A stretch of DNA of 64,000 bases from Candidatus Marinacidobacterium sp. (GCA_965220965.1 OZ244852.1:2560001-2624000), one strand, 5' to 3'; counted from the stretch's first letter, positions 29,602-42,438 are shown. The notes: a model not told the origin generated them from the letters alone. Translations and numbers: made by a program.

Positions 29602-32313
29602 GTGAACTCGCGCTCCCCCTGCGCCCGCCGGAGGTCCGGCGCGCTTCCGACCACGCTGCTCCTCGTGCTGGTGGCGGGCGCCCCGGCCGCTGCGCAACCC
29701 CCCTCCCCCGAAGAGGTGCTTGGCTACCCGATGGGCGCGGCGCTCACCGACTACGGCGGCCTCTACCGGTACCTCGCGGCGGTGGAGGACTCCGAACGGC
29801 TCCGGGTCTCCGTCTTCGGCGAGACCTTCGAACATCGGGAGCTGCTTCTCCTCACGATCAGCTCGCCGGAGAACCTGGAGCGGCTCGACCGGATCCAGGC
29901 CGACACCCGCCGCCTCGCCGATCCGCGCGGGCTCGATGCGGAAGAGGCGGAGGAGATCCTCGCCCGCACGCCCGCCGGGGTGTTCCTGAACTACGGGAAC
30001 GACGGCAACGAGTCGGCCGCCTTCGAGGCGGCGCTCTGGATGGCGTGGGAACTCCTCACCGGACGCCACGACGCGCTCCTGGAGGATCTCGTCGTCTACA
30101 TCGTTCCCGCCTCGAACCCCGACAGTCACGAGCGCTTCGTCGCCTGGTTCAACTCGGTGGCGGCGTGGCCCGACGGGGACCCCGACCCGAACGCGGTCGA
30201 GCACCGCGCGCCGTGGGGCCTCTCCACGAACAACAACCACTACCAGATCAACCTGAACCGGGACTCGATCTGGAGCACCCAGCCGGAGAACCGGGCCCTT
30301 CTCCGGCTCTATCTCGAGACCCGCCCCATGGTGTTCGTGGACCACCACGGGGAGACCGACTCCTACATCGGGCCCTGGATGGTCGAACCGCTCCACAGCG
30401 TCCTCACCGGGAACCAGCGCGACTGGCTCGTCGAATACGGCCGCCGCATGGCGGCCGACTTCGCGGGGGCCGGCTACCCCTACAGCCCATGGGAGTTCGG
30501 TCAGTTCGACCCCGGCTACTGGGACACGCTGCCCAACTTCACCGGGTCGATCGGGTTCACCCTCGAGACGACCGGCGGCGGCTGGCGCGGACTCCGCATC
30601 GAACGGCCAGGCGGCGGCGAATACACCCTGCGGGACGGGATCGAGCAGCACCTCGTCGCCGACCGGAGCCTCCTCGCGTTCACCGCCGGGAACCGGGAGC
30701 GGAGGCTCCGGGACTACCTCGCCTACCGGCGGGACGCGCGCGACGGGGATGGCGGGCCGGCGGGCTGGTTCCTTTCCGGCGACGGGGATCCGGCGCGTCT
30801 CGACGAGGTGCGCGCCATGCTGCTCCGCGCCGGCGTCGAGGTGCGGCGGACGACGCGGGAGACCGTCGTCCCCGGGGCCGCTCCGATGTTCCCCCTCACC
30901 GGAGCGGCCGGCGAAGTCCGGCTGCCCCCGGGAAGCCTGATCGTCGCCCGCGACCAACCCGAGGGCCGGCTGGCGCAGGTGTTCGTCGAGCAGGACGCCC
31001 GCTTCAGCGAGGAGTTCCTGGGCCAGGTGGACGAGCACCGCGAGCGGCGCGGCGACCCCGGCTTCCAGCACCCGGACATCTGGACGACCGCCGACGCGTT
31101 CTACGACATCACCGCCTGGTCCGTCCCGCTGACCTACCGCCTCCCGGCGGGGGTCGTTGCGGACGCCGCCAACCTGCCTCTGGACGAGGCGACCGAACTC
31201 CTGGCCTTCCCGGACGACCCGCTGGCCGATCCCCGGCCGACTCCGGGCCGCTTCGACCGGCCGGACGCCGCCTACGGCTTCCTGGTTGCGGGAGACACGG
31301 ATCACGTCTCGATGGCGGCCGTCTGGCTCCGGAACCACGCGGTTCCCTTCCGGGTGGCGACCGCGGAGTTCGAAAGGGACGGCGTCAACTACGGCCGGGG
31401 ATCGCTTCTCGTGTTCCTCGGCGAGGCGCCGGATCCCGCTCTCCTCCGTTCGGGTCTTCGCGAACTCGCCGGGGCCGGGGCCCGGATCGCCGGGGTGAGC
31501 GATCCGCTGAGCGAGGCTGGCCCGCATCTCGGCTCCGACCGGTTTCTCCCGGTGCGCACTGGCCGGGTGGCGATGGTCTACGGGGGGCCGGTCCGGCCCT
31601 CGGCCTACGGCAGTCCCTGGTATCTGTTCGAGCGGCGCTACCGCCTCCCGTTCACCGCGCTCTGGTGGGACCGCCTCGCCGACACCGACCTGCGCGGCTA
31701 TCAGGTTCTGATCCTCCCGGACGGGAGCTATCCGCCGGCGGACACGCCAGAGGGCGCCCGGGTCCTCGACCACCTCGGGGAGTGGACCGCCGAGGGTGGA
31801 ACGATCGTCGCGATGCGCGGCGCCTCGGCGTGGCTCGCGGAGGAAGGAGTGGACTGGACGCGCTCCCGCTTCCAGCCCGGCTTCACCTCGAAGTCCGCGT
31901 TCATGACGGATGGCGGGCGCCCCGACGACCCTCCGGCGCCGGGCGAGACCGGGGTCGCCCCCGCCGAAGTCGTCCCCGGCGCGATCCTTCGCGCGCTCCC
32001 GAATCCCGAGAGCTTTCTGTCGTTCGGCTACGAGGAGCCGTTCCCGGTCATGGTCTGGTCCAGCCTCGCCTTCGAACCCGACCCCTCCATCGCCGTCGGG
32101 GCGCGATTCCCCGAAGACGCGGCGGAGCTCCTCGGGAGCGGGTTCGCGTTCCCCGATTCGCTCGACCGGCTCGCGGGAAGTCCTTATGTCGTCACCGAGC
32201 GCGTCGGCGCCGGCCGGGTCGTGCTTTTCCTGGACGACCCCAACTTCCGCCTCTTCTGGTCCGGGCTGACCCGACTCTTCCTGAACGCGGTCCTCTTCGC
32301 GCCGACCTTCTGA
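29602..32313 (+). CDS. M14-family zinc carboxypeptidase, secreted, with C-terminal GATase-like domain
   Basis: Motifs GETFEHREL, DGNE, NPDSHER, NHYQINLNRD, DHHGE, YDITAWS and DPNFRLFW; start approximate. Confidence 0.85.
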   Translation: MNSRSPCARRRSGALPTTLLLVLVAGAPAAAQPPSPEEVLGYPMGAALTDYGGLYRYLAAVEDSERLRVSVFGETFEHRELLLLTISSPENLERLDRIQADTRRLADPRGLDAEEAEEILARTPAGVFLNYGNDGNESAAFEAALWMAWELLTGRHDALLEDLVVYIVPASNPDSHERFVAWFNSVAAWPDGDPDPNAVEHRAPWGLSTNNNHYQINLNRDSIWSTQPENRALLRLYLETRPMVFVDHHGETDSYIGPWMVEPLHSVLTGNQRDWLVEYGRRMAADFAGAGYPYSPWEFGQFDPGYWDTLPNFTGSIGFTLETTGGGWRGLRIERPGGGEYTLRDGIEQHLVADRSLLAFTAGNRERRLRDYLAYRRDARDGDGGPAGWFLSGDGDPARLDEVRAMLLRAGVEVRRTTRETVVPGAAPMFPLTGAAGEVRLPPGSLIVARDQPEGRLAQVFVEQDARFSEEFLGQVDEHRERRGDPGFQHPDIWTTADAFYDITAWSVPLTYRLPAGVVADAANLPLDEATELLAFPDDPLADPRPTPGRFDRPDAAYGFLVAGDTDHVSMAAVWLRNHAVPFRVATAEFERDGVNYGRGSLLVFLGEAPDPALLRSGLRELAGAGARIAGVSDPLSEAGPHLGSDRFLPVRTGRVAMVYGGPVRPSAYGSPWYLFERRYRLPFTALWWDRLADTDLRGYQVLILPDGSYPPADTPEGARVLDHLGEWTAEGGTIVAMRGASAWLAEEGVDWTRSRFQPGFTSKSAFMTDGGRPDDPPAPGETGVAPAEVVPGAILRALPNPESFLSFGYEEPFPVMVWSSLAFEPDPSIAVGARFPEDAAELLGSGFAFPDSLDRLAGSPYVVTERVGAGRVVLFLDDPNFRLFWSGLTRLFLNAVLFAPTF

Positions 32314-32432
32314 TCCCGGGCCGGGGCCGGTTTCGCGGGGTCCCGGCTGCGCGCCCGGCATGTGACGTGAAATGGCGCATTAGCGCCGATTTCCGGGCTA
32401 CATTCCCTCCCGGTCCGGGGAGGGAGTCACCT

Positions 32433-35306
32433 GTGCATTCATTCGATCAGCGGCTGAGTCGGCAGTTTCTCCTCGCTGCGTTCCGCGCGGCGAACTCGCG
32501 TCCCCGCCTTCGCTCGCAACTGGCCGAGTGGATCCATGAGAGTGAGGTCGACCTCCGCTCCGTCGGCGCGGCGTTCCTGGTGACCGCCTCCGCGAAGAGG
32601 CTCCTCGCCGAGGACGAAGACGAGGGGTTCGCGGGTCACGATCCGCTCTTTCGCCGCCGGTCGCGCCGCGAAGTCCCGCGTCCGGACGCCCGGTTGCGCC
32701 AGTACTTCGCCCGCGTGATTCCCCGCCTCGAGGCCTCGCTTGCGGGACCGGGGCCGGCCCGCACCGGCGCCGCCCGGGCAACGCAGATCCTGGTCAACGC
32801 CTTCCGCCTCAAGGCCCCGTGCGGGACGCTGCTCGACCTCGTCCGGCTCCATTCCGAGCGCGGTTCCGTGGTCTACCAGACCTGGGACCGCGTGAACGAC
32901 GAGTTCCGTGACCAGCTCGCGACGACCGCGGCCCTGCTCGGCATCTCCCGGCGCTCGGTGGAGGCCGCGCTCCGCCGGCTTGACCGGGCGGGCCTGGGCG
33001 ACCCGGAGGACTGGGGCCGCGCCGGCGCCGACCCGGACGACTACCTGAACCGCTGGGTCGAGCGGATCTACAGCCCCCCGGTCACCACCGTCGACGAGCT
33101 TCGAACCCGCCTTGCGCCGCGAGCCGCGCCGCCGCTCCTCGGGCTTCGGGACTTCGAGCACCTCGACGAACGGGATGACGCGCTGAGGCTCCTCAAGGGC
33201 GCGCTCCGCCGCGGCGCCGGGCTCCGGGTGCTGCTCTATGGTCGACCCGGGACCGGCAAGACCGAGTTCGCGAAGACGCTGGCCCATGCCGCGGAGGCGC
33301 GTCTCTACGACATCGGCGGTCCGCTGTCTCGCCGCAGCTACCGCGCGGAGGAAGATCATCACACCCACGATCGTCCTTCGAGGAACCGGAACCGTTTGCG
33401 GTTCGCGGAGGCCCTCCTCCGCAGCGACCCGGGGGCCGTGATCCTCTGCGACGAGGTGGAGGATGTCCTGTCTTCGGAACCAGGGCGAAGGCGTCAGAGC
33501 CACTCGATGCTCGAGGAGTCGAGAGTTCCGGTCCTCTTCACCGGCAACGACCTGAGCCGGTTCGACGAGGCAGTGCTTCGGCGCTTCGATCTCATGATCC
33601 GGTTCCGGCCCCTCAGTCCCCGGCGCCGGAGGTCCGTCGTCCGCCGGATGCTGAGGACCGCCGACCTCCAGGGTGTGGGGGCCGACAGGATTGACGGGCT
33701 CGCCGTCCGTCTCGCGGACGAGCTGGAGTGCCCCCCGGCCATCATCGAGCGCGCGATCCACGCGACCCGGCTCGTGAAGGGTTCCGCAGAGGACCTGTTC
33801 CGGTTCGCCGAGCGGAACGAGCGGGTCCTGTCGCGGCGGACGCCACGGCCCCGGCTCGGGCCGCCGGTCGAGGCGGAGCTGGGCTGGGCCGCCTTCGCCC
33901 ATCTGGGAGAGCCCGCGGAAGACATCCGGCGGGTCCTGACGGCGGCCGTGGCCGCGAGGAAGGAACGTCGTCGCACAACGGCGCCGGTCAGCGCCCTCTT
34001 CCACGGCCCGCCGGGCGGCGGCAAGACGGCGTTCTGCCACGCGCTCGCCGCCGAAGCCGGCGCAACGCTCTACGCGGTCGGGCAGCGCGACCCCGGTGTG
34101 AACCCGCGTCCTTCGGCGCCGCGGTCCGAGGCGCTGGCGCACGCGATGGAGGCGCTCGCCGATGAGCCCGGCGCCGTCCTTCTGTTCGATGAGATCGAGG
34201 ACCTCGTGTTCGACCGCCCGAAGTTCTGGCTGAACTCGCTTCTCGAGGAGTGCCGCGTTCCCCTTCTGATGACGGCGAACGCCACCGAAGCTCTCCGGCG
34301 GCATTTGCCGCACTTCCTCGACCGCGTGACCTGCTCGCTCGAGTTCCGGCACATTCCGCGAAGGCGTCGCGCCTCCATGTTCCGGGATCTGCTGGGTGGA
34401 GACGAGGAGTCGCGTCGCGAAGCCCTGGTCACCCGTCTCGCCGAAGACCGGCGCGTCACCCCGCGCGCCGTTCGGAACGCGGCGCAGGTCGCCTCGCTCA
34501 CCGGACTCGGGATCGTCGCGGCCCGGCGGGCGGTCGAGGCGCACCAGAGCCTTCGGTACGGGCGCTCCGGCGCCCGTTCGAAGCCCGGCGCGGACTACGA
34601 CGTAGCGCTCATCTGCGCCCGACCGGATCTTCGGGCTCTGCGCGACCGGATCCTGGAAGCGGGTTCCGGTCGGCTGGGACTGCTGCTCGACGGCCCGTCG
34701 GGCAGCGGCAAGTCGGTCTTCGCCCGCCAGCTCGCCCTCGAGATGGGTCTCGATCCAGTGGTGAAGCGGGCCTCCGGGCTCCTGAGTTCCTGGGTCGGCG
34801 AGACCGAAAAACGTATCGCGGCAGCGTTCGCCGAGGCCCGGGTGGACGGAGGCTTCCTCATCATCGACGAGGCGGACTCGTTCCTGTTCGACCGCCGCGA
34901 CGCCTCCCGGACCTGGGAGACGAGCATGGTGAACGAGGTGCTCAGCCAGCTCGAGACCCACGACGGCCCCTACGCGTTCACGACGAACCTCGCCGACCGC
35001 CTCGACCCCGCGGTAGCCCGGCGGTTCCTCTTCCGGGCGACGTTCGACTATCTGGACCGTCCGAGGGTCGAGCGCGCCTTCGTCCACTTCTTCGGCGCGG
35101 AGGCGCCGCCCGCAGTGCTCGCGCTCACCCGGCTCGTGCCCGCCGACTTCGCGCTGGTGCGCGAACGCGCAAGCGTCCTCGGCTACCTGGACGACGTCGT
35201 CAGGCTGGAGGAGGAACTCCGCGCGCAGTCCGTTGGCCGCGAGGCCCGGACCCACGCCGGCTTCCGCATCGGAAGTCCGATGCCGGTGGGAGAGCGCCGG
35301 CCATGA
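32433..35306 (+). CDS. AAA+ ATPase with three tandem AAA domains (about 957 aa)
   Basis: Walker A/B pairs GRPGTGKT/LCDE, GPPGGGKT/LFDE and GPSGSGKS/IIDE; pore loop WVGETEK in domain 3; SD GGGAG before GTG 32433. Confidence 0.9.
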   Translation: MHSFDQRLSRQFLLAAFRAANSRPRLRSQLAEWIHESEVDLRSVGAAFLVTASAKRLLAEDEDEGFAGHDPLFRRRSRREVPRPDARLRQYFARVIPRLEASLAGPGPARTGAARATQILVNAFRLKAPCGTLLDLVRLHSERGSVVYQTWDRVNDEFRDQLATTAALLGISRRSVEAALRRLDRAGLGDPEDWGRAGADPDDYLNRWVERIYSPPVTTVDELRTRLAPRAAPPLLGLRDFEHLDERDDALRLLKGALRRGAGLRVLLYGRPGTGKTEFAKTLAHAAEARLYDIGGPLSRRSYRAEEDHHTHDRPSRNRNRLRFAEALLRSDPGAVILCDEVEDVLSSEPGRRRQSHSMLEESRVPVLFTGNDLSRFDEAVLRRFDLMIRFRPLSPRRRRSVVRRMLRTADLQGVGADRIDGLAVRLADELECPPAIIERAIHATRLVKGSAEDLFRFAERNERVLSRRTPRPRLGPPVEAELGWAAFAHLGEPAEDIRRVLTAAVAARKERRRTTAPVSALFHGPPGGGKTAFCHALAAEAGATLYAVGQRDPGVNPRPSAPRSEALAHAMEALADEPGAVLLFDEIEDLVFDRPKFWLNSLLEECRVPLLMTANATEALRRHLPHFLDRVTCSLEFRHIPRRRRASMFRDLLGGDEESRREALVTRLAEDRRVTPRAVRNAAQVASLTGLGIVAARRAVEAHQSLRYGRSGARSKPGADYDVALICARPDLRALRDRILEAGSGRLGLLLDGPSGSGKSVFARQLALEMGLDPVVKRASGLLSSWVGETEKRIAAAFAEARVDGGFLIIDEADSFLFDRRDASRTWETSMVNEVLSQLETHDGPYAFTTNLADRLDPAVARRFLFRATFDYLDRPRVERAFVHFFGAEAPPAVLALTRLVPADFALVRERASVLGYLDDVVRLEEELRAQSVGREARTHAGFRIGSPMPVGERRP
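35140..35255 (+). repeat. copy 1 of a 116-bp imperfect direct repeat (3' end of the AAA gene)
   Basis: Aligns without gaps to 36574-36689, with 17 mismatches by manual count. Confidence 0.88.
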
Positions 35307-36547
35307 AGGCGATGACCAGGGACACGGGGTCCGACTACGGCTTCCTGCACACGATCGCTCCAAGCGACTTCGAGGGCCATCTGACCCGCATCTTCGCCTG
35401 GATCCTGCAGAACACCGGATTCGGCGAGGAGTATCTCGAACGCCTGAGGAAGAGATCCCACAAGGTTCCCGGCCCCACGGGCGAGGCCCCTCGGTGGGAC
35501 ACCGAGGTCTCCTTTCCACGCGAGGGAGGAGAAGCCATTCGCCCGGCGATGGTCTGCCGGTTCCGGAGCGGATACTCCGAATCCGGCGTCATCTTCGCCC
35601 ACACCGTATGCGCCCCTCTCCGCGATGGCCAGATCCAGGAATACCGGGACTCGGCGCCTCCAGAGTTGCAGGGAGCTCCGGTCGTTCTGATCTGTGAGAA
35701 CCCCGGCCAGATGTCCATGGACGTCGATGTGGAGCACTTCTGGTGGGACGTCCACACGTGGCTCGAGGCCTGGCTCCGCTCCAACCGCGCCGGGCTCAGC
35801 CCGGAAGTTGGCTTCGTTGTCCGCGACTTGCTGGAAATGATGGATCGGAGAGGGCTCAGTGAATCATCGTCGGGCATCCCATCGCGCGCTCACTGGACTG
35901 CGCTCTACTCTGCGCGAATCAGCGCCTCCGTCCATAAGCTCCTGCGGCTCGTGGTTCATCAGTGGCGCCTGCCGCACAACGTCGTGGAGGACTGGGGCCG
36001 GATCGGCTTCATGGCGCGCGGCGACTTCGAGCGAACCAGGGGCGCGGTTGAGGACGCTCCGGGAGTCTTCGTCGGGATCCTCCTGCCTTGTCAGGACTGC
36101 TTGACGCCCGAAAGAGAGCTGGAGGCGGTAGTGATGCTGTGGGGTGACGTGCTGTGCGACTGCACCCAGCCATCAGCCTTCCACGCCTTCCGAATCGAAC
36201 TGTTGCGGCGACAAGGAGATCTTCCGGAGGGTTGGAAGATTCAGGAGCCATGGAAGGCGGAGTTGGAACGGCCTTGGCCGCCCAGGGGTCCCAGGCCCTG
36301 GCGGCTGCTGGAACTACGACGTCCTCTCGCGGACGTCCTGTCACGCGTCGAGAGTGGTATCAGGCAGGCGCAGCGCTTCCATGATCAAGCCCGCGAGGTC
36401 GTCCGGGTGGTGGAGGAATGCCTCTCGAGTGCCGGAGGTAGTTGGGACTGGCGGTCAGACGACGAGCCGCCAGAAGTACAGGAGGCCGATGCGGGGTTCT
36501 CGGTCGACGAGTCAGAGGACGAAGAGGAGCCTGATGTGGGGTTTTGA
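35303..36547 (+). CDS. PD-(D/E)XK-fold protein with a degenerate catalytic motif (414 aa)
   Basis: E.HLTRIFAWIL...WDTEV...RPAMV...IFAHTV.APL.DGQIQEY parallels the family pattern RPD...FEHKV..L..GQL..Y; ATGA overlap with the AAA gene; acidic tail ending DVGF. Confidence 0.62.
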   Translation: MKAMTRDTGSDYGFLHTIAPSDFEGHLTRIFAWILQNTGFGEEYLERLRKRSHKVPGPTGEAPRWDTEVSFPREGGEAIRPAMVCRFRSGYSESGVIFAHTVCAPLRDGQIQEYRDSAPPELQGAPVVLICENPGQMSMDVDVEHFWWDVHTWLEAWLRSNRAGLSPEVGFVVRDLLEMMDRRGLSESSSGIPSRAHWTALYSARISASVHKLLRLVVHQWRLPHNVVEDWGRIGFMARGDFERTRGAVEDAPGVFVGILLPCQDCLTPERELEAVVMLWGDVLCDCTQPSAFHAFRIELLRRQGDLPEGWKIQEPWKAELERPWPPRGPRPWRLLELRRPLADVLSRVESGIRQAQRFHDQAREVVRVVEECLSSAGGSWDWRSDDEPPEVQEADAGFSVDESEDEEEPDVGF

Positions 36548-36573
36548 CAGGAATCGGTCAGGCGTTTCGTCCT

Positions 36574-36689
36574 CCGCCGGCCTCGCGCTGGTGCGCGAGC
36601 GCGCCGGCGTCCTCGGCTTGCTGAAGGAGGTCGCCCGGCTGGAAGAGGAGCTCCGCGCGCAGTCCGGCGGCCGCGAGGCCCGGACGCAC
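36574..36689 (+). pseudogene. remnant of a paralogous AAA ATPase C-terminus (repeat copy 2)
   Basis: Encodes ALVRERAGVLGLLKEVARLEEELRAQSGGREARTH, versus ALVRERASVLGYLDDVVRLEEELRAQSVGREARTH in the AAA gene. Confidence 0.8.
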
Positions 36690-36882
36690 CCGGCAACCGA
36701 AAAGGGGCCTGACGGGCGGGCGACCGGGCCAAGAGAACAAAAAAACCGTCGCTAAGAGCAGAATTCGCCCGTTCCTGCGTCGATCGGCGCAATCTGGGCT
36801 CTCCATCCAGTGAACCGGTTCCTCGCGGGGCCGACCACCCAACGAGGGATCCCCCTCACTGCCAAGCCAAGGAGGACATGGC

Positions 36883-37941
36883 ATGACAACCCCGAACATC
36901 TTCAAACACGCGACCTCGGAACTCTCGCAGGACGCGATGATTTGCTGGCTCGTCGACTGTGCGCGCGAGGCCACCGGGAGGCTACGGGAGTGCGGACTGG
37001 CCTTCGTTCAGGCGCTCTTCGACGCGGATGAGCGACGCGTAGTCCCTCCCGACAAGGGTGACGCCACGCCCTATTCGGGACCGGGAGAGGTGACTTCGGT
37101 ATCTTGCCCCAAACGTCAGTACGGGAAGATCGACGTCTATTTCCAGGCCGCCGTCGACGGTCAGACGGTCAGCTTCATCATCGAAGACAAGGTGCACTCC
37201 GGAGAGCACAGCAACCAGCTCGCGCGGTACCTCGAGGTCGTTCGAAGTGACGACGACGTGGAGGCTCTGATCAAGCCCACCTTCTTCAAGACCGGATACA
37301 TCTTCGACGACGAGAAGGACACAGCACGTGGCAACAACTACGCGCTGTTCTCGGGCGAGGATGCCGTCAAGGCGCTTGATCCCTTTACGGAAGTGCATCC
37401 CCTGATCGACCAGTTTGTGGCCCACCTGAAGAAGCACCAGCGAGACCGCGAGTTGGCTCTCGCTAATGCGTGCTTCGGTGATGCTGTGGTTCAGTGGGAG
37501 TTCGCCAAGCGACTCCGGGCAGCTCTTCCCGAAGACCTTCGGGGGGGGGCCGCGCCGAAGTGGACGCAGTGGAACGGAATCGGACGCGGCATCAATCGCG
37601 GCGGCGGGCCGTGGACCCAGTACCCGTTCGCGGGTCACTTCTGCTGGCGGCTGGATTCGCCCAGCTTGCGACTGATGCTCTATCCGAGAGAGGGGCTCAC
37701 ATCGGAGCCGGAGATGAGAGAACGATGGGAGCGTCTGAGCAGCCGCTTTGCCACGCTCGCGGCGGATGGCCGCCTGTCAGTCGTGAAGCTCCGCAAGAGG
37801 CGGACGTACAGGGGGCAGATCGTCAACGAGGGCACGGTCGGGGCGCTCGCGCTTCCCGAGACGGGTCCGTCCGGATGGGGCGCGTTCGTAGACCGGATCG
37901 TGAGCCTCACCGAGCGCCTTCTTAAGGAGGCCGGAGCGTAA
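36883..37941 (+). CDS. PD-(D/E)XK nuclease (PDDEXK_4-like)
   Basis: NIFKHATSELSQDA..CWL, IDVY...IIEDKV and NQLARY; strong SD AAGGAGG. Confidence 0.82.
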   Translation: MTTPNIFKHATSELSQDAMICWLVDCAREATGRLRECGLAFVQALFDADERRVVPPDKGDATPYSGPGEVTSVSCPKRQYGKIDVYFQAAVDGQTVSFIIEDKVHSGEHSNQLARYLEVVRSDDDVEALIKPTFFKTGYIFDDEKDTARGNNYALFSGEDAVKALDPFTEVHPLIDQFVAHLKKHQRDRELALANACFGDAVVQWEFAKRLRAALPEDLRGGAAPKWTQWNGIGRGINRGGGPWTQYPFAGHFCWRLDSPSLRLMLYPREGLTSEPEMRERWERLSSRFATLAADGRLSVVKLRKRRTYRGQIVNEGTVGALALPETGPSGWGAFVDRIVSLTERLLKEAGA

Positions 37942-38130
37942 GTGAACGGCCGGCGCGCTCCGGCGGAAGGTTGCGAGCTACGGGAGTACGATCTCGCGAA
38001 CCGGGTCCCGGAGGAATGCGTTGGCGAGAATCCGTGGACGCCGGACCCGTGACGCAGCAGCCACAGCCCGACACGGGGCTCTGATTCCCGGTCGGGCTGA
38101 CGGAGAGCGCCGGGGTCTGATCCCCCGCGA

Positions 38131-39294
38131 TCAGGCCTCGGCCATCCGGTCGAACAGCGCCTTGTGGGTGTTCACGATGTGGTCCCGGGCGGCGGCGTTG
38201 GGTTCGAGTGACCACTCGCCCTTTTCGCCGGTGCCGCCCAGGATGATCCCGTCGTTTCGCGGCTGCATGCTGACGCCGGTGACGCCCGGAGGAGCGCCCG
38301 GGGCGGTGGTCGAGATGCCGTAGTTCACTTCCGCCTGCGGGACGAGCACGGTGAGCTGGCCCCGGAGCGGCATGAGCTCCGGGTCCTCGAACAGCTCGCC
38401 GGAGCCGAGCCCGGTGCAGTTGAACACGAGCGACTCCGGGAGCGCGGCGATCTCGCGCACATCGCTGAACTTGCGGATGACCAGCTTGCCCCCGTGGTCG
38501 CGGAAGTCCCGGACGAGCGCATCCAGGTAGGTCGCCGGCTCGATCCGGATCCTGGTCCGCCGCACCGCGTATTGCGTCGGGAAGTTGTGCTCGCCCGGAC
38601 CCAGCACGAAGCGGCCTCCACCGCTGAGATGCTCCGGGAGCAGGGGTCCCCGTCCCCGGGTGGGTCGGGGCGGCCGCGGTTCGCGCGGCGCGTCGTCCCG
38701 CAGCGCGTAGTGGTCGAGCCAGGCGATCCCGTATCCCCGGCCGGCGAGCCACTGGAACTCGAGATACGAGATCTCCACCGCCTCGCGGAACTGCGCGTCC
38801 CAGGCTGGCGTCCGTTGCGGATCATCCACCAGCCAGGCCGCCGGGGTGAACCCGGCCCACGCCATGTTGGAGGTCGTGTTTGGGGGCACGTTCGCGGCGT
38901 AGATCGTCACCTCGAAACCGCGCCGCTGGAGCTGACGGGCGGTGGCGAGCCCCACGGCGCCGCTCCCGAGGACCGCCGCCCGGCGGCTCGAATGGTCGAG
39001 CGCCATCTCGGCGGCCATCCGACCGGTCCCCCACGAGAGTGAAATGCCGGCCCCGCCGTGGCCGTAGTTGTGGATCAGCGTCTTGCTGTCGAGCTTGTCG
39101 GCGCGCAGGATGAACCCCGACGGCCGGTGCGGACGGAGTCCGACGGTCGTCCGGATCACCCGGTTCCAGGCCACCCGGACCGGGGCGAAGCGAAGCGCCG
39201 GCCGAGGCTGGATGTCGGCCCGGGTCGAGCACGCGCCGAGGCCGAGCCCCACCAGACCGGCGCTCCCCAGCTTCAACAGGTTCCGTCGTTTCAT
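38131..39294 (-). CDS. FAD-dependent D-amino acid oxidase-like protein with Tat lipoprotein signal
   Basis: GLRPHR and HNYGHGGAGISLSWG precede GSGAVG; NCTGLG and RGQL present; N-terminus MKRRNLLK...LGAC. Confidence 0.88.
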   Translation of the reverse strand: MKRRNLLKLGSAGLVGLGLGACSTRADIQPRPALRFAPVRVAWNRVIRTTVGLRPHRPSGFILRADKLDSKTLIHNYGHGGAGISLSWGTGRMAAEMALDHSSRRAAVLGSGAVGLATARQLQRRGFEVTIYAANVPPNTTSNMAWAGFTPAAWLVDDPQRTPAWDAQFREAVEISYLEFQWLAGRGYGIAWLDHYALRDDAPREPRPPRPTRGRGPLLPEHLSGGGRFVLGPGEHNFPTQYAVRRTRIRIEPATYLDALVRDFRDHGGKLVIRKFSDVREIAALPESLVFNCTGLGSGELFEDPELMPLRGQLTVLVPQAEVNYGISTTAPGAPPGVTGVSMQPRNDGIILGGTGEKGEWSLEPNAAARDHIVNTHKALFDRMAEA

Positions 39295-40685: not shown

Positions 40686-41869
40686 GGCTGACGCCGGATC
40701 GTCGCCACGACCGAGGCCTGTTCGAGATCGAAGTGCGCCGCCGGGCTCCCGTTGTGTCGGAGTGCGTCCTGCGCCCGGATGATCCCGCGACCGAACCGGT
40801 TCACGTACCCGAGGGTGGCCATGGCTTCCGCCAGCACCGGATTCCGGTAGTCGGTCACCGGGGGCGGCCCGAGGCTGGCGCTGCCGTAGAAGCCGCCCGG
40901 ATTCTGGATCTCGATTCGGTCCGCGAACCAGTTGAAGCGCGTTGGCGCATTGGACTCGTAGGATCGGTGCATTACCGCGTTCAGCAGGAGCTCCCGTATT
41001 GCGACCGGAGGGTAGTCCTGCAACCGGGTCTCTCGCAGCGCGGTGGCGGCAACGGGTCGGGCCCTCGACGGACGGGACGCGATGGACTCGAGGAGCCGAA
41101 GAACGGTCAGGAGATCACCGCTGACGACCTCCTCCGCGATTGGCTCACTCGCGAACGAATCGCCCGCCCACTGCACGAATTGGAGCCAGGCTCCCGGAAT
41201 CCATCGCAGCGGCTCCTTTCCGAAGAGGAGGATGCCGGCCATCGTCGGACAGCGCGAACGGGGATCGAAGAAGCGGAGAGACGCCATCTGTTCTTCGAGT
41301 TCCCGGTCGTTCTCCTCGATCACGTCATGGGATACCGCCTGTGGGAGGTACGTCCCCTGGAAGAGTTCGGGAACGAGGTCGTCAAGAGAGCTTCCGACAC
41401 ACGGTCGCAGATCGAAGGGAAGATGGCGCGAGGCGCGCTTTTCCACCAGGATTCGCTCCTCCTGGCGATTCGCGGCCCGACGCGAAGGGCCGACACGAAT
41501 CCAGACGCGGCCCTTGTAGCGCACTGGCGGGAGGTCGGAAGGCAGCACCTCGACGATGCCCACGTCGCCTTCCGGCAGAGCGACCTTGCCCACGGTCAGA
41601 GCCGGAAGCGGCTCCAGGTTCACGTTCGAACGCAGGGACGCCACCTCACGCAGCGTCTTGTCAGAGATCTCCCGGCCAGCGGGGCGCCCGTCATCGTGGA
41701 CGCCGATCAGGAGATATCCCGGCGCCCCGTGATTCGGGAAGTCGTTTGCGAAGGCGCAGATGGCCTCCGCGAACTTCTCCGTTTTGCCGATCGCGTTCGT
41801 GAATTCGATCCGGTCGGATTCACCGGCGTCGAGGAGATCCCGCAGCCGGGACTCCTCCAGAGCCTTCAC
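40682..41869 (-). CDS. AlbA_2 (Schlafen-like) domain plus HATPase_c_4/RecG-C-like domain protein
   Basis: ESDRIEF, ICAFAND..GYLLIGVHDDG, RELLLNAVMHRSY, IEIQNPGG and YRNP; GTGA overlap upstream and ATGA overlap downstream. Confidence 0.85.
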   Translation of the reverse strand: MKALEESRLRDLLDAGESDRIEFTNAIGKTEKFAEAICAFANDFPNHGAPGYLLIGVHDDGRPAGREISDKTLREVASLRSNVNLEPLPALTVGKVALPEGDVGIVEVLPSDLPPVRYKGRVWIRVGPSRRAANRQEERILVEKRASRHLPFDLRPCVGSSLDDLVPELFQGTYLPQAVSHDVIEENDRELEEQMASLRFFDPRSRCPTMAGILLFGKEPLRWIPGAWLQFVQWAGDSFASEPIAEEVVSGDLLTVLRLLESIASRPSRARPVAATALRETRLQDYPPVAIRELLLNAVMHRSYESNAPTRFNWFADRIEIQNPGGFYGSASLGPPPVTDYRNPVLAEAMATLGYVNRFGRGIIRAQDALRHNGSPAAHFDLEQASVVATIRRQP

Positions 41870-42438
41870 GAATCGTGGAGCCGTCGCCCGGTGATGCCCA
41901 GCTCCTCGGCGTGCGGGCGCAGCGCCGCGACGATGAAGTCGATGTGCTCTCCGAGGTCCACGCCCAGCAGCTCCGCGCCGATGCGGCACTCGTGCCGCTC
42001 CACCTTCGCTGCGAACGCCTTGTCCTTCAGCTTCTTCTTCACGCTGCGGGCGGTGAGGGTCGAGACCCCCTCGGGGCGAACCAGGCAGCACGCGACGATG
42101 AACCCGGTCAGCTCGTCACACGCGAGCAGGGCGCGGTCCATTGGCGACTTCAGGGGGACGCCCCACCTCGTGTAGTGGCCCGAGATCGCGTAGGCGAGGT
42201 CCTCCTCGCCGCGCTCCCGCAGCCACGCCACGATCCGCTTCGGGTGATCCTCCGGCCACTTCTCGTAGTCGGCGTCGTGGAGCATGCCGGCCATCCCCCA
42301 CCGCTCGGGGTCCGCATCCGGCCCGCCGTAGCGGCTGGCGGCGGCCCGCATCACGATCTCCACCGAGCGGGCGTGTTTCCGGAGCGACTCCGTCTCGCAC
42401 CACTCCGTCAGGTGCCCCCAGGCTTCGTCCCGGGTCAT
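41866..42438 (-). CDS. HD-domain phosphohydrolase (HDIG-like)
   Basis: Motifs SLRKH..VE..M, LHDADYE, ACDELTG and KKLKDKAFAA. Confidence 0.88.
   Translation of the reverse strand: MTRDEAWGHLTEWCETESLRKHARSVEIVMRAAASRYGGPDADPERWGMAGMLHDADYEKWPEDHPKRIVAWLRERGEEDLAYAISGHYTRWGVPLKSPMDRALLACDELTGFIVACCLVRPEGVSTLTARSVKKKLKDKAFAAKVERHECRIGAELLGVDLGEHIDFIVAALRPHAEELGITGRRLHDS

Follow-up and report, generated by a model that had tools for sequence, protein, structure and literature searches.

Pairs of a nucleoside triphosphatase (NTPase) and a nuclease are a standard design of bacterial immunity. The described proteins and systems closest to the locus reported here are IetAS (Gao_Iet), whose ATPase IetA is accompanied by the subtilisin-like S8 protease IetS; the type II classical AAA unfoldases Cdc48/p97, VAT, Rix7 and AFG2; the nuclease family PDDEXK_4 (PF14281) together with PDC-S26, where we take PDC to denote an untested phage-defence candidate; and the WYL-regulated operons of BREX and CBASS. 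We analyzed a window of 64,000 nucleotides (the whole stretch of DNA under study) from Candidatus Marinacidobacterium sp. (GCA_965220965.1 OZ244852.1:2560001-2624000), which has a guanine-plus-cytosine (GC) content of 70% and belongs to a genome of 3.25 Mb. Positions 32433-37941 of this window are filled by four features in the same orientation: an ATPase of 957 residues with three AAA modules (32433..35306, + strand), a PD-(D/E)XK-fold protein of 414 residues that lacks the catalytic residues (35303..36547, +), a non-coding relic of the ATPase 3′ end (36567..36694, +) and an intact PDDEXK_4-like PD-(D/E)XK nuclease of 352 residues (36883..37941, +). This layout agrees with the original prediction, made by eye from the sequence, which had described a ~957-residue triple-AAA ATPase coupled through an ATGA overlap to a 414-residue nuclease scaffold without catalytic residues, then a remnant of the ATPase 3′ end and an intact nuclease, and which had recognised no named system in the combination: scans with Pfam, PADLOC and NCBIfam models returned no full match to any. 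Put most safely, the locus is an accessory island with a conserved AAA+ anchor and an exchangeable nuclease slot, in which the active site of one occupant has been selectively erased.

The ATPase gene starts with GTG, not ATG, after GGAGGGAG. Its product matched the Pfam AAA model PF00004 in three stretches (4.2e-41; 140.9 bits against a gathering score of 21.2) and consists of a helical N-domain (residues 1-245, positions 32433-33167), AAA1 (residues 246-480, 33168-33872), AAA2 (residues 481-725, 33873-34607) and AAA3 (residues 726-957, 34608-35303), all on the + strand. The Walker A lysines (K276, K531 and K760) and the Walker B pairs (D340-E341, D586-E587 and D812-E813) showed no variation across 22 aligned full-length homologues, and every module carries a sensor-1 asparagine and arginine-finger-like residues. 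A canonical W-V-G pore loop could be read only in AAA3; AAA1 and AAA2 have no canonical aromatic pore-loop motif by sequence, and the corresponding site in AAA1 is an insertion modelled at low confidence (residues 297-312; predicted local distance difference test, pLDDT, <50). AAA3 is the most conserved module, with 66-71% identity to the closest homologues, while the first 110 residues of the protein are the least conserved part (23-35% identity). In the AlphaFold2 (AF2) model (pLDDT 79.9) residues 1-230 are all helical, and within this domain a helix-turn-helix (HTH)-like stretch at residues 163-188 scored below threshold (E 0.016-0.1) and an Atlas search pointed to the winged-helix domain PF22977, both being leads only. 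The protein is a classical-clade AAA+ ATPase whose three modules all look active and whose helical N-domain, possibly with an HTH, evolves fast.

Among characterized ATPases the nearest relatives of AAA3 in sequence are VAT, Rix7 and Cdc48 (1e-18), and Foldseek matched the AF2 model to Cdc48, AFG2, Rix7 and p97 (~1e-12 over ~550 columns). The likeness to these type II unfoldases lies in the sequence of AAA3 with its W-V-G loop, in the fold of two consecutive modules and in the Walker, sensor-1 and arginine-finger-like residues. The superposition was poor, with a root-mean-square deviation (rmsd) of ~18 Å, and so does not fix how the modules are placed relative to one another. Moreover, the window's ATPase has three modules rather than two, no canonical aromatic pore loop can be read in its first two modules, its N-domain is different, helical and possibly HTH-bearing, and the gene is accessory rather than housekeeping.

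The best match of the ATPase to a defence protein in both PADLOC and NCBIfam was IetA (1.7e-25; IteA_antiphage, 79.9 bits), and in both cases classical AAA modules stand in a defence context. However, the PADLOC match is limited to the AAA3 core (residues 749-877, aligned with positions 124-255 of a 374-position model), the NCBIfam score falls far under the cut-off of 510, and IetA has a single AAA module against three here. In addition, the island contains no subtilisin-like S8 protease partner: protease models from Pfam, PADLOC and NCBIfam did not match either downstream protein, and those from Pfam and PADLOC did not match the flanking genes scanned. The peptidase encoded upstream of the island is of the M14 family; it was considered as an IetS-like partner and rejected, as it has a signal-peptide-like hydrophobic N-terminus and is conserved in genomes without the ATPase.

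The distribution of the ATPase is patchy. Of 24 other genomes of the same family 16 have it, against none of 16 genomes from two sister families; as related genomes, these are not independent samples. Carriers of the triple form comprised 13 genomes of the same bacterial family, a Latescibacteria record (L033, 41% identity) and the metagenome contigs L050 and L051. In a sample of 400 other genomes of the phylum at least 11 had ATPase matches, all of them partial and of a two-AAA type. Two-AAA relatives are 28-44% identical to the window's ATPase, cluster with it and carry recurrent neighbours. A metagenome scan yielded 78 loci, 75 of them with a called ATPase, mostly two-AAA forms of ~700 residues. 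In a search of viral contigs, two of 14 ATPase matches were at family level and there was none for the family of the catalytically dead protein, which gives no indication of a phage origin.

The neighbours of this ATPase family are recurrent. Clustering of the neighbours at the 75 metagenome loci gave, as recurrent families, genes for HTH-WYL-WCX regulators (30/75), for DUF2779 proteins with a Cas4-like N-terminus (19/75) and for GmrSD (10/75). Many of the contigs are short, and the absence of a neighbour is meaningful only in the 18 loci flanked by at least 2.5 kb on both sides; there, WYL genes were present in ten and DUF2779 genes in nine, with either of them in 14, and a tenth locus has a gene resembling F9, a nuclease-like protein of ~600-710 residues that is itself a distant relative of DUF2779 (hhalign 69%, E 4.4e-5, 381 columns, DFET motif included). 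WYL genes also stand beside ATPase homologues in L022, in L033 and on two plasmids of cultured Alphaproteobacteria, where the row of genes reads ATPase, WYL, ADP-ribosylglycohydrolase, (HEPN), PD-(D/E)XK and UvrD. Genes of the PDDEXK_4 kind lie near ATPase homologues in L051/L105 (4.8e-7; PDC-S26 at 6e-15) and in L124 (2.9e-21). Other direct neighbours encode RtcB, ExoX, RecJ, an Eco57I-type enzyme, GIY-YIG, SIR2, Macro and ADP-ribosylglycohydrolase proteins, so that the surroundings comprise genes of both the defence kind and the damage-response kind. The PADLOC candidates PDC-S01, PDC-S44, PDC-M09A/B and PDC-M72A were found near homologues too, as were a fusion of a methyltransferase with Mrr (MTase-Mrr), GmrSD and WYL regulators, and it is these that bear out the defence-type setting that had been proposed. 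The check for a recurrent ATPase-nuclease neighbourhood that had been called for came out less evenly: nuclease genes do recur, as DUF2779 in nine of the 18 well-flanked loci and as PDDEXK_4 in L051/L105 and L124, but the specific trio of the window does not.

These loci resemble the operons regulated by BrxR (BREX) and CapW (CBASS) in that HTH-WYL-WCX genes flank the ATPase homologues; they differ in their cargo, an AAA ATPase with DUF2779 or other nucleases, and the island of the window has no WYL gene. Another counterpart is the set of WYL, AAA ATPase and DUF2779-nuclease genes described above. The window's ATPase belongs to that ATPase family, although the island has no adjacent WYL regulator or DUF2779-type dual nuclease, and no F9 homologue was found in its genome. 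Literature listings and abstract openings contained no paper on this ATPase family, on its WYL or DUF2779 partners and cassettes, or on a triple-AAA defence ATPase.

Individual homologues have further neighbours of their own. RtcB RNA ligase genes lie directly 3′ of two-AAA homologues on two unrelated metagenome contigs (L080:2521-3735 and L091:1295-2644), an adjacency that hints at a link to RNA repair or tRNA damage for part of the family. In L077 (4241-6091), and likewise in L062, L063, L065, L066 and L083, a conserved trio of genes for proteins of ~90, 370 and 110 residues (clusters C15, C10 and C3) stands upstream of the two-AAA ATPase and divergent from the DUF2779 gene; Pfam and PADLOC gave no match for any of the three. 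In L027 (4659-7023) a two-AAA homologue is followed directly by PDC-M09A (3e-102) and PDC-M09B (1e-149), and the ATPase there may be an unrecognised third component of the PDC-M09 candidate system or a mere neighbour.

The gene slot behind the ATPase could be compared across ten loci in which the ATPase is linked to the M14 peptidase gene (seven genomes, two metagenome contigs and the window). Downstream of the ATPase these carry F9 in four cases, nothing in four, the MTase-Mrr fusion in one and the two PD-(D/E)XK genes in one, the window. The first of these two genes begins within the end of the ATPase gene, its ATG at 35303 overlapping the ATPase stop codon (TGA, 35304-35306); a second in-frame ATG follows three codons after the first. 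The 414-residue product had no match among Pfam, PADLOC or NCBIfam models. A word-based search had recovered nine homologues and had made its family appear rare or orphan, an impression overturned by an exhaustive profile search, which gave 1113 representatives at E<=1e-3, of which 201 reach E<=1e-30. Members (P0176-P0324) are typically of 370-400 residues and combine a PD-(D/E)XK N-domain with a C-domain resembling YbjN and type III secretion chaperones. The family is without a Pfam model, and eight members scanned gave just two PDDEXK_4 matches, both below threshold.

The active site of the window's protein is erased. For this comparison 134 full-length sequences (>=330 residues) out of 159 family sequences were aligned. 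The family motif is P-D...E-H-K, and the D-E-K residues are present in 133 of 133 other full-length members; the window's protein, with A82, A99 and T101 at these positions (codons GCG, GCC and ACC), is the sole exception among the 134. Of 22 positions with >=90% conservation among the other members it retains 15, where those members retain at least 18 (median 21), and the seven lost positions include D, E and K and the neighbouring Q68.

The predicted fold of its N-domain resembles those of PD-(D/E)XK nucleases, which dominate the list of structural matches. The AF2 model (pLDDT 70.3) is confident in the N-domain and of low confidence in the C-terminal half. A structure search against 48,161 chains placed residues 15-163 closest to 1y88 (Z 8.0, rmsd 2.8, 106 residues; a middling Z by the tool's calibration), followed by the BspD6I small subunit, SduA, NucS, Card1, Can2, McrC and Hna (Z 5-6.3, likewise middling), and residues ~200-380 resembled type III secretion chaperone and YbjN-like folds (Z 6.5-7.8, middling). 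Foldseek gave weak matches, the best at E 7.9e-3. The protein aligns end to end with the family profile up to residue 396 (of 414); its acidic C-terminal tail is peculiar to it. An open frame of 571 residues elsewhere (G009:C1:1315920-1316309, L130) matches the family C-domain only (profile positions 232-368, 9.3e-22), and this C-domain therefore occurs in another architecture too.

The second occupant of the slot has its own AAGGAGG ribosome-binding site, behind a gap of 335 nt, and an intact active site: D84, E101, K103 and Q112 showed no variation in 53 aligned sequences. We take it as the likely DNA-cutting effector. It has 61 homologues of at most 44% identity, many with precomputed PF14281 assignments, and is itself a borderline relative of PDDEXK_4 (20.9 bits, below the gathering score of 22.3). 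Its match to PDC-S26 is partial (residues 78-122, 2.2e-6). A plasmid search with this nuclease gave two partial matches only. The likeness to PDC-S26 extends to P0106, an active relative of the dead protein (1.2e-7), and, as noted above, to the neighbour of the L051 ATPase, and these proteins share a size of ~350-400 residues and an N-terminal D...E-x-K domain. However, the matches cover only ~45-80 residues around the motif, and the dead protein has none. The two PD-(D/E)XK proteins of the island had been taken for paralogues, one dead and one active. They are not close paralogues: they belong to different families that are related at the profile level only (hhalign 81.9%, E 1.1e-5), and there only in the N-domain, where the motifs fall in register along 132 columns.

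The three genes lie in a 5.8-kb accessory island (32316..38133, without strand) bounded by the M14 peptidase gene, whose stop is at 32313, and by a convergent gene for a FAD-dependent oxidoreductase (DAO). In two congeners (L045 and L046) the M14 and DAO proteins are 80-81% and 85-86% identical to those of the window, and DNA homology breaks off at 32315 and returns at 38134/38141. Between the two genes these congeners have ~750 bp with a small gene resembling ribbon-helix-helix (RHH) antitoxins (L045:2816-3598 and L046:2762-3499, reoriented with M14 on the + strand), to which L046 adds a PIN-like open reading frame (ORF). As the RHH (+ PIN) module occupies the exact site of the island, the hotspot alternates between a toxin-antitoxin module and the ATPase island. 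In the neighbouring genus the site after M14 holds an ATPase orthologue (53-55% identity) or passes directly into conserved backbone genes (VapBC-type PIN/antitoxin, DUF1028, HD, DoxX and PQQ-dehydrogenase). The block is accessory, and the site 3′ of the M14 peptidase gene is a recombination hotspot.

Composition differs within the island, as had been noticed by eye. The ATPase and M14 genes have GC contents of 0.712 and 0.713, the gene for the 414-residue protein 0.639 and the intact nuclease gene 0.630; at third codon positions (GC3) the values are 0.86/0.89 for the ATPase and the M14 flank versus 0.77/0.78 for the two nuclease-fold genes, which overall are ~8 points poorer in GC. No RNA run was listed among the public runs that hold the island; contigs from four runs contained it in identical form in two and as fragments in two, with no variant form. 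A promoter and terminator scan gave no promoter-like site and two terminator-like sites, where 3.0 were expected. The M14 stop and the ATPase start are 119 nt apart, and this gap contains a perfect 14-nt palindrome, GGCGCATTAGCGCC, at 32374-32387, which may be an operator or belong to a terminator.

A search for flanking direct repeats and att-like sites gave a single one, a repeat of the ATPase 3′ end. The relic at 36567..36694 corresponds to ATPase residues 904-947 (70% identity at the protein level, E 4.9e-10) and is ~83-85% identical in nucleotides to 35134-35261. The core of this pair is a direct repeat (D1) of 116 nt, 85% identical, with its ATPase copy at 35140-35255 and a start-to-start distance of 1434 nt; the relic as a whole measures 116-128 nt. 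Among the alleles compared, the resident ATPase 3′ end is the nearest to the relic (85%, the others being <=76%). Since the repeat pair brackets the dead-nuclease gene, this gene would have come in along with an ATPase 3′ end or beside one. Insertion by a single crossover of a piece that carries the gene and an ATPase 3′ arm would leave such a repeat, and a local duplication could also yield it.

We consider that the island may be a local variant of an undescribed cassette of an ATPase and exchangeable nucleases, serving defence or a DNA-damage response, a reading to which we give a little less than an even chance. The anchor of the island would be the ATPase, which belongs to a family, mostly of two-AAA forms of ~700 residues, that travels across phyla with WYL regulators and exchangeable nuclease genes; in the window the nuclease slot holds the two PD-(D/E)XK-fold genes, with no WYL gene beside the ATPase. 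The dead gene would have been brought in by recombination, in the course of which ~120 nt from the 3′ end of the ATPase gene were duplicated, and would now be translationally coupled to the ATPase. Its product may serve the ATPase as a non-catalytic subunit that binds DNA or protein, in the manner of an adaptor. When infection or DNA damage occurs, the N-domain and the dead partner would direct the ATPase to a nucleoprotein target, and remodelling of that target by the ATPase would license or assist cleavage by the active nuclease. The gene layout, the accessory status, the associations of the ATPase family and the loss of the active site are observed; we infer that the three genes are functionally coupled, together with the nature of the trigger and the direction of control; the role of the dead protein as a sensor, adaptor or decoy, and its remodelling by the ATPase, are conjectural. 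A complex prediction for ATPase residues 1-245 with residues 1-385 of the dead protein scored 0.00 against a mark of 0.32, which counts neither for nor against binding.

Several results weigh against such a cassette. The three-gene combination was found at no other locus examined. Profile searches with either PD-(D/E)XK family across the ATPase loci of 18 relatives gave a match only in L018, and across the 78 metagenome loci none at E<=1e-5, the weak matches to the intact nuclease profile being 8.9e-5 (L124) and 9.8e-4 (L095); in the phylum sample the intact nuclease family appeared in three of 400 genomes, as fragments or a partial weak match only. Gene calls in the relatives and metagenome contigs rest on an ORF and GC3 heuristic, with approximate starts. 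There is no WYL gene within the window, and the sole WYL match of the genome is 266 kb off. The four M14-linked ATPases without an adjacent nuclease tell in the same direction: in the three that come from genomes, an F9 homologue lies on another contig or >2.5 Mb off with no cassette families beside it (the fourth, L050, is a metagenome contig and outside this genome check), and with F9 unlinked there, adjacency is not obligatory. Finally, 12 loci of the dead protein's family were retrieved by two peptide patterns, a biased sample of a large family. Three of these have a triple ATPase within 10 kb: the window, L033, and L018/L039 taken as a single locus. The family member of L018 is an active relative whose gene converges on that of the ATPase; the one of L033 is found 3.2 kb downstream of the ATPase, separated from it by three unrelated genes and next to a DUF2779 gene. 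The other nine are without this ATPase and stand alone amid defence-type genes (AAA_21/RloB, SIR2-DUF4020, PIN/Phd or HNH).

In the alternative to which we give most weight, although we still regard it as rather unlikely, the ATPase, the dead gene and the nuclease would be three independent passengers of a hotspot that collects defence and toxin-antitoxin cargo, unrelated in function, with the nuclease a stand-alone protein like PDC-S26. In congeners the same site is taken by RHH/PIN genes and in other genera it is empty or has variable cargo, relatives of both PD-(D/E)XK proteins partly match a single-gene PADLOC candidate, and the nine loci without the ATPase, the unlinked F9 nucleases of three genomes, and the separate ribosome-binding site and upstream gap of the intact nuclease all fit passengers that came singly. 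Set against this are the ATGA overlap that joins the dead gene to the ATPase, the duplicated ATPase 3′ end that brackets the dead gene, and the recurrence of nuclease genes beside ATPase homologues across phyla. Moreover, a triple ATPase is within 10 kb in three of the 12 dead-family loci, and the family of that ATPase is present in just ~3% of the sampled genomes of the phylum.

A second alternative concerns the middle gene only and is compatible either with the cassette or with independent passengers. The dead protein would be a disarmed passenger, a once-toxic nuclease that lost its activity after transfer, has no role of its own and is drifting to loss, which we think unlikely. Besides being the only family member with A-A-T for D-E-K, it sits on one of the longest branches (33.7% identity to the nearest member; the family median is 43.8%), has 57 of the 155 positions invariant among nine homologues where another high-GC member has 83, and has a C-terminal half that is modelled at low confidence; open frames may also persist by chance at 70% GC. 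Against drift, the losses cluster at the active site and 15 of the 22 conserved structural positions remain, the frame runs across 1245 nt without a frameshift or stop despite change enough to replace three catalytic residues, the GC at the three codon positions (0.675/0.477/0.766) retains coding-type periodicity, and the start of the gene overlaps the ATPase stop. As all of D, E and K are replaced without a frameshift, with structural positions kept and the codon-position signature intact, we infer from the sequence that the protein is a maintained, non-catalytic pseudo-nuclease rather than debris. Two of the points that weigh on the cassette apply here as well: long spurious ORFs are abundant at 70% GC, which makes the open frame weak evidence, and there is no clade of dead relatives among the 134 aligned members, so that with no second dead member, and the nearest relative only 34% identical, conservation of the dead state cannot be shown.

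Improbable, in our estimate, is a pure DNA- or RNA-damage response, in which a WYL-controlled repair regulon of the PafBC/DriD kind would deploy the ATPase to clear stalled or damaged nucleoprotein and the nucleases to process DNA: the WYL-WCX architecture is known for DNA-damage sensing, and neighbours of ATPase homologues include RtcB (L080 and L091), ExoX-type exonucleases (L125-L127), RecJ (L101), uracil-DNA glycosylase (UDG; L082), UvrD-type helicases and DUF2779 exonuclease-nucleases, but the cassette occurs patchily, as an accessory element, and alongside restriction enzymes, GmrSD, SIR2 and PADLOC candidates, the window's locus has no WYL gene, and its composition indicates a foreign origin.

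A bolder form of the cassette reading, which we rate as a long shot, would make the triple-AAA chain a new remodelling motor, either a three-tier ring or a dimer with six modules in one ring, and the dead nuclease its DNA-reading adaptor, the pair sensing foreign or damaged DNA and switching on the active nuclease. If this were true, bacterial conflict systems would show a new principle, the use of pseudo-nucleases as adaptors for AAA+ motors, with the ATPase 3′ end serving as a built-in recombination arm for swapping effector cassettes. Whichever reading holds, the ATPase family is present in several phyla and on plasmids, and the locus offers a natural three-module AAA+ chain and a pseudo-nuclease with an erased active site, joined by an ATGA overlap to the motor. 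The recombination scar suggests how nuclease cassettes swap behind a conserved ATPase. If the coupling of the genes is real, the island would show how a motor and a dead enzyme control a live nuclease, and if it is not, the island still illustrates cleanly a defence hotspot that contains a disarmed nuclease.

Outside the island, the window contains an ORF of 480 residues at 40733-42175 (+) that is probably spurious, at least in its C-terminal part, because residues 364-480 match relatives only where an HD-domain gene on the opposite strand is conserved.

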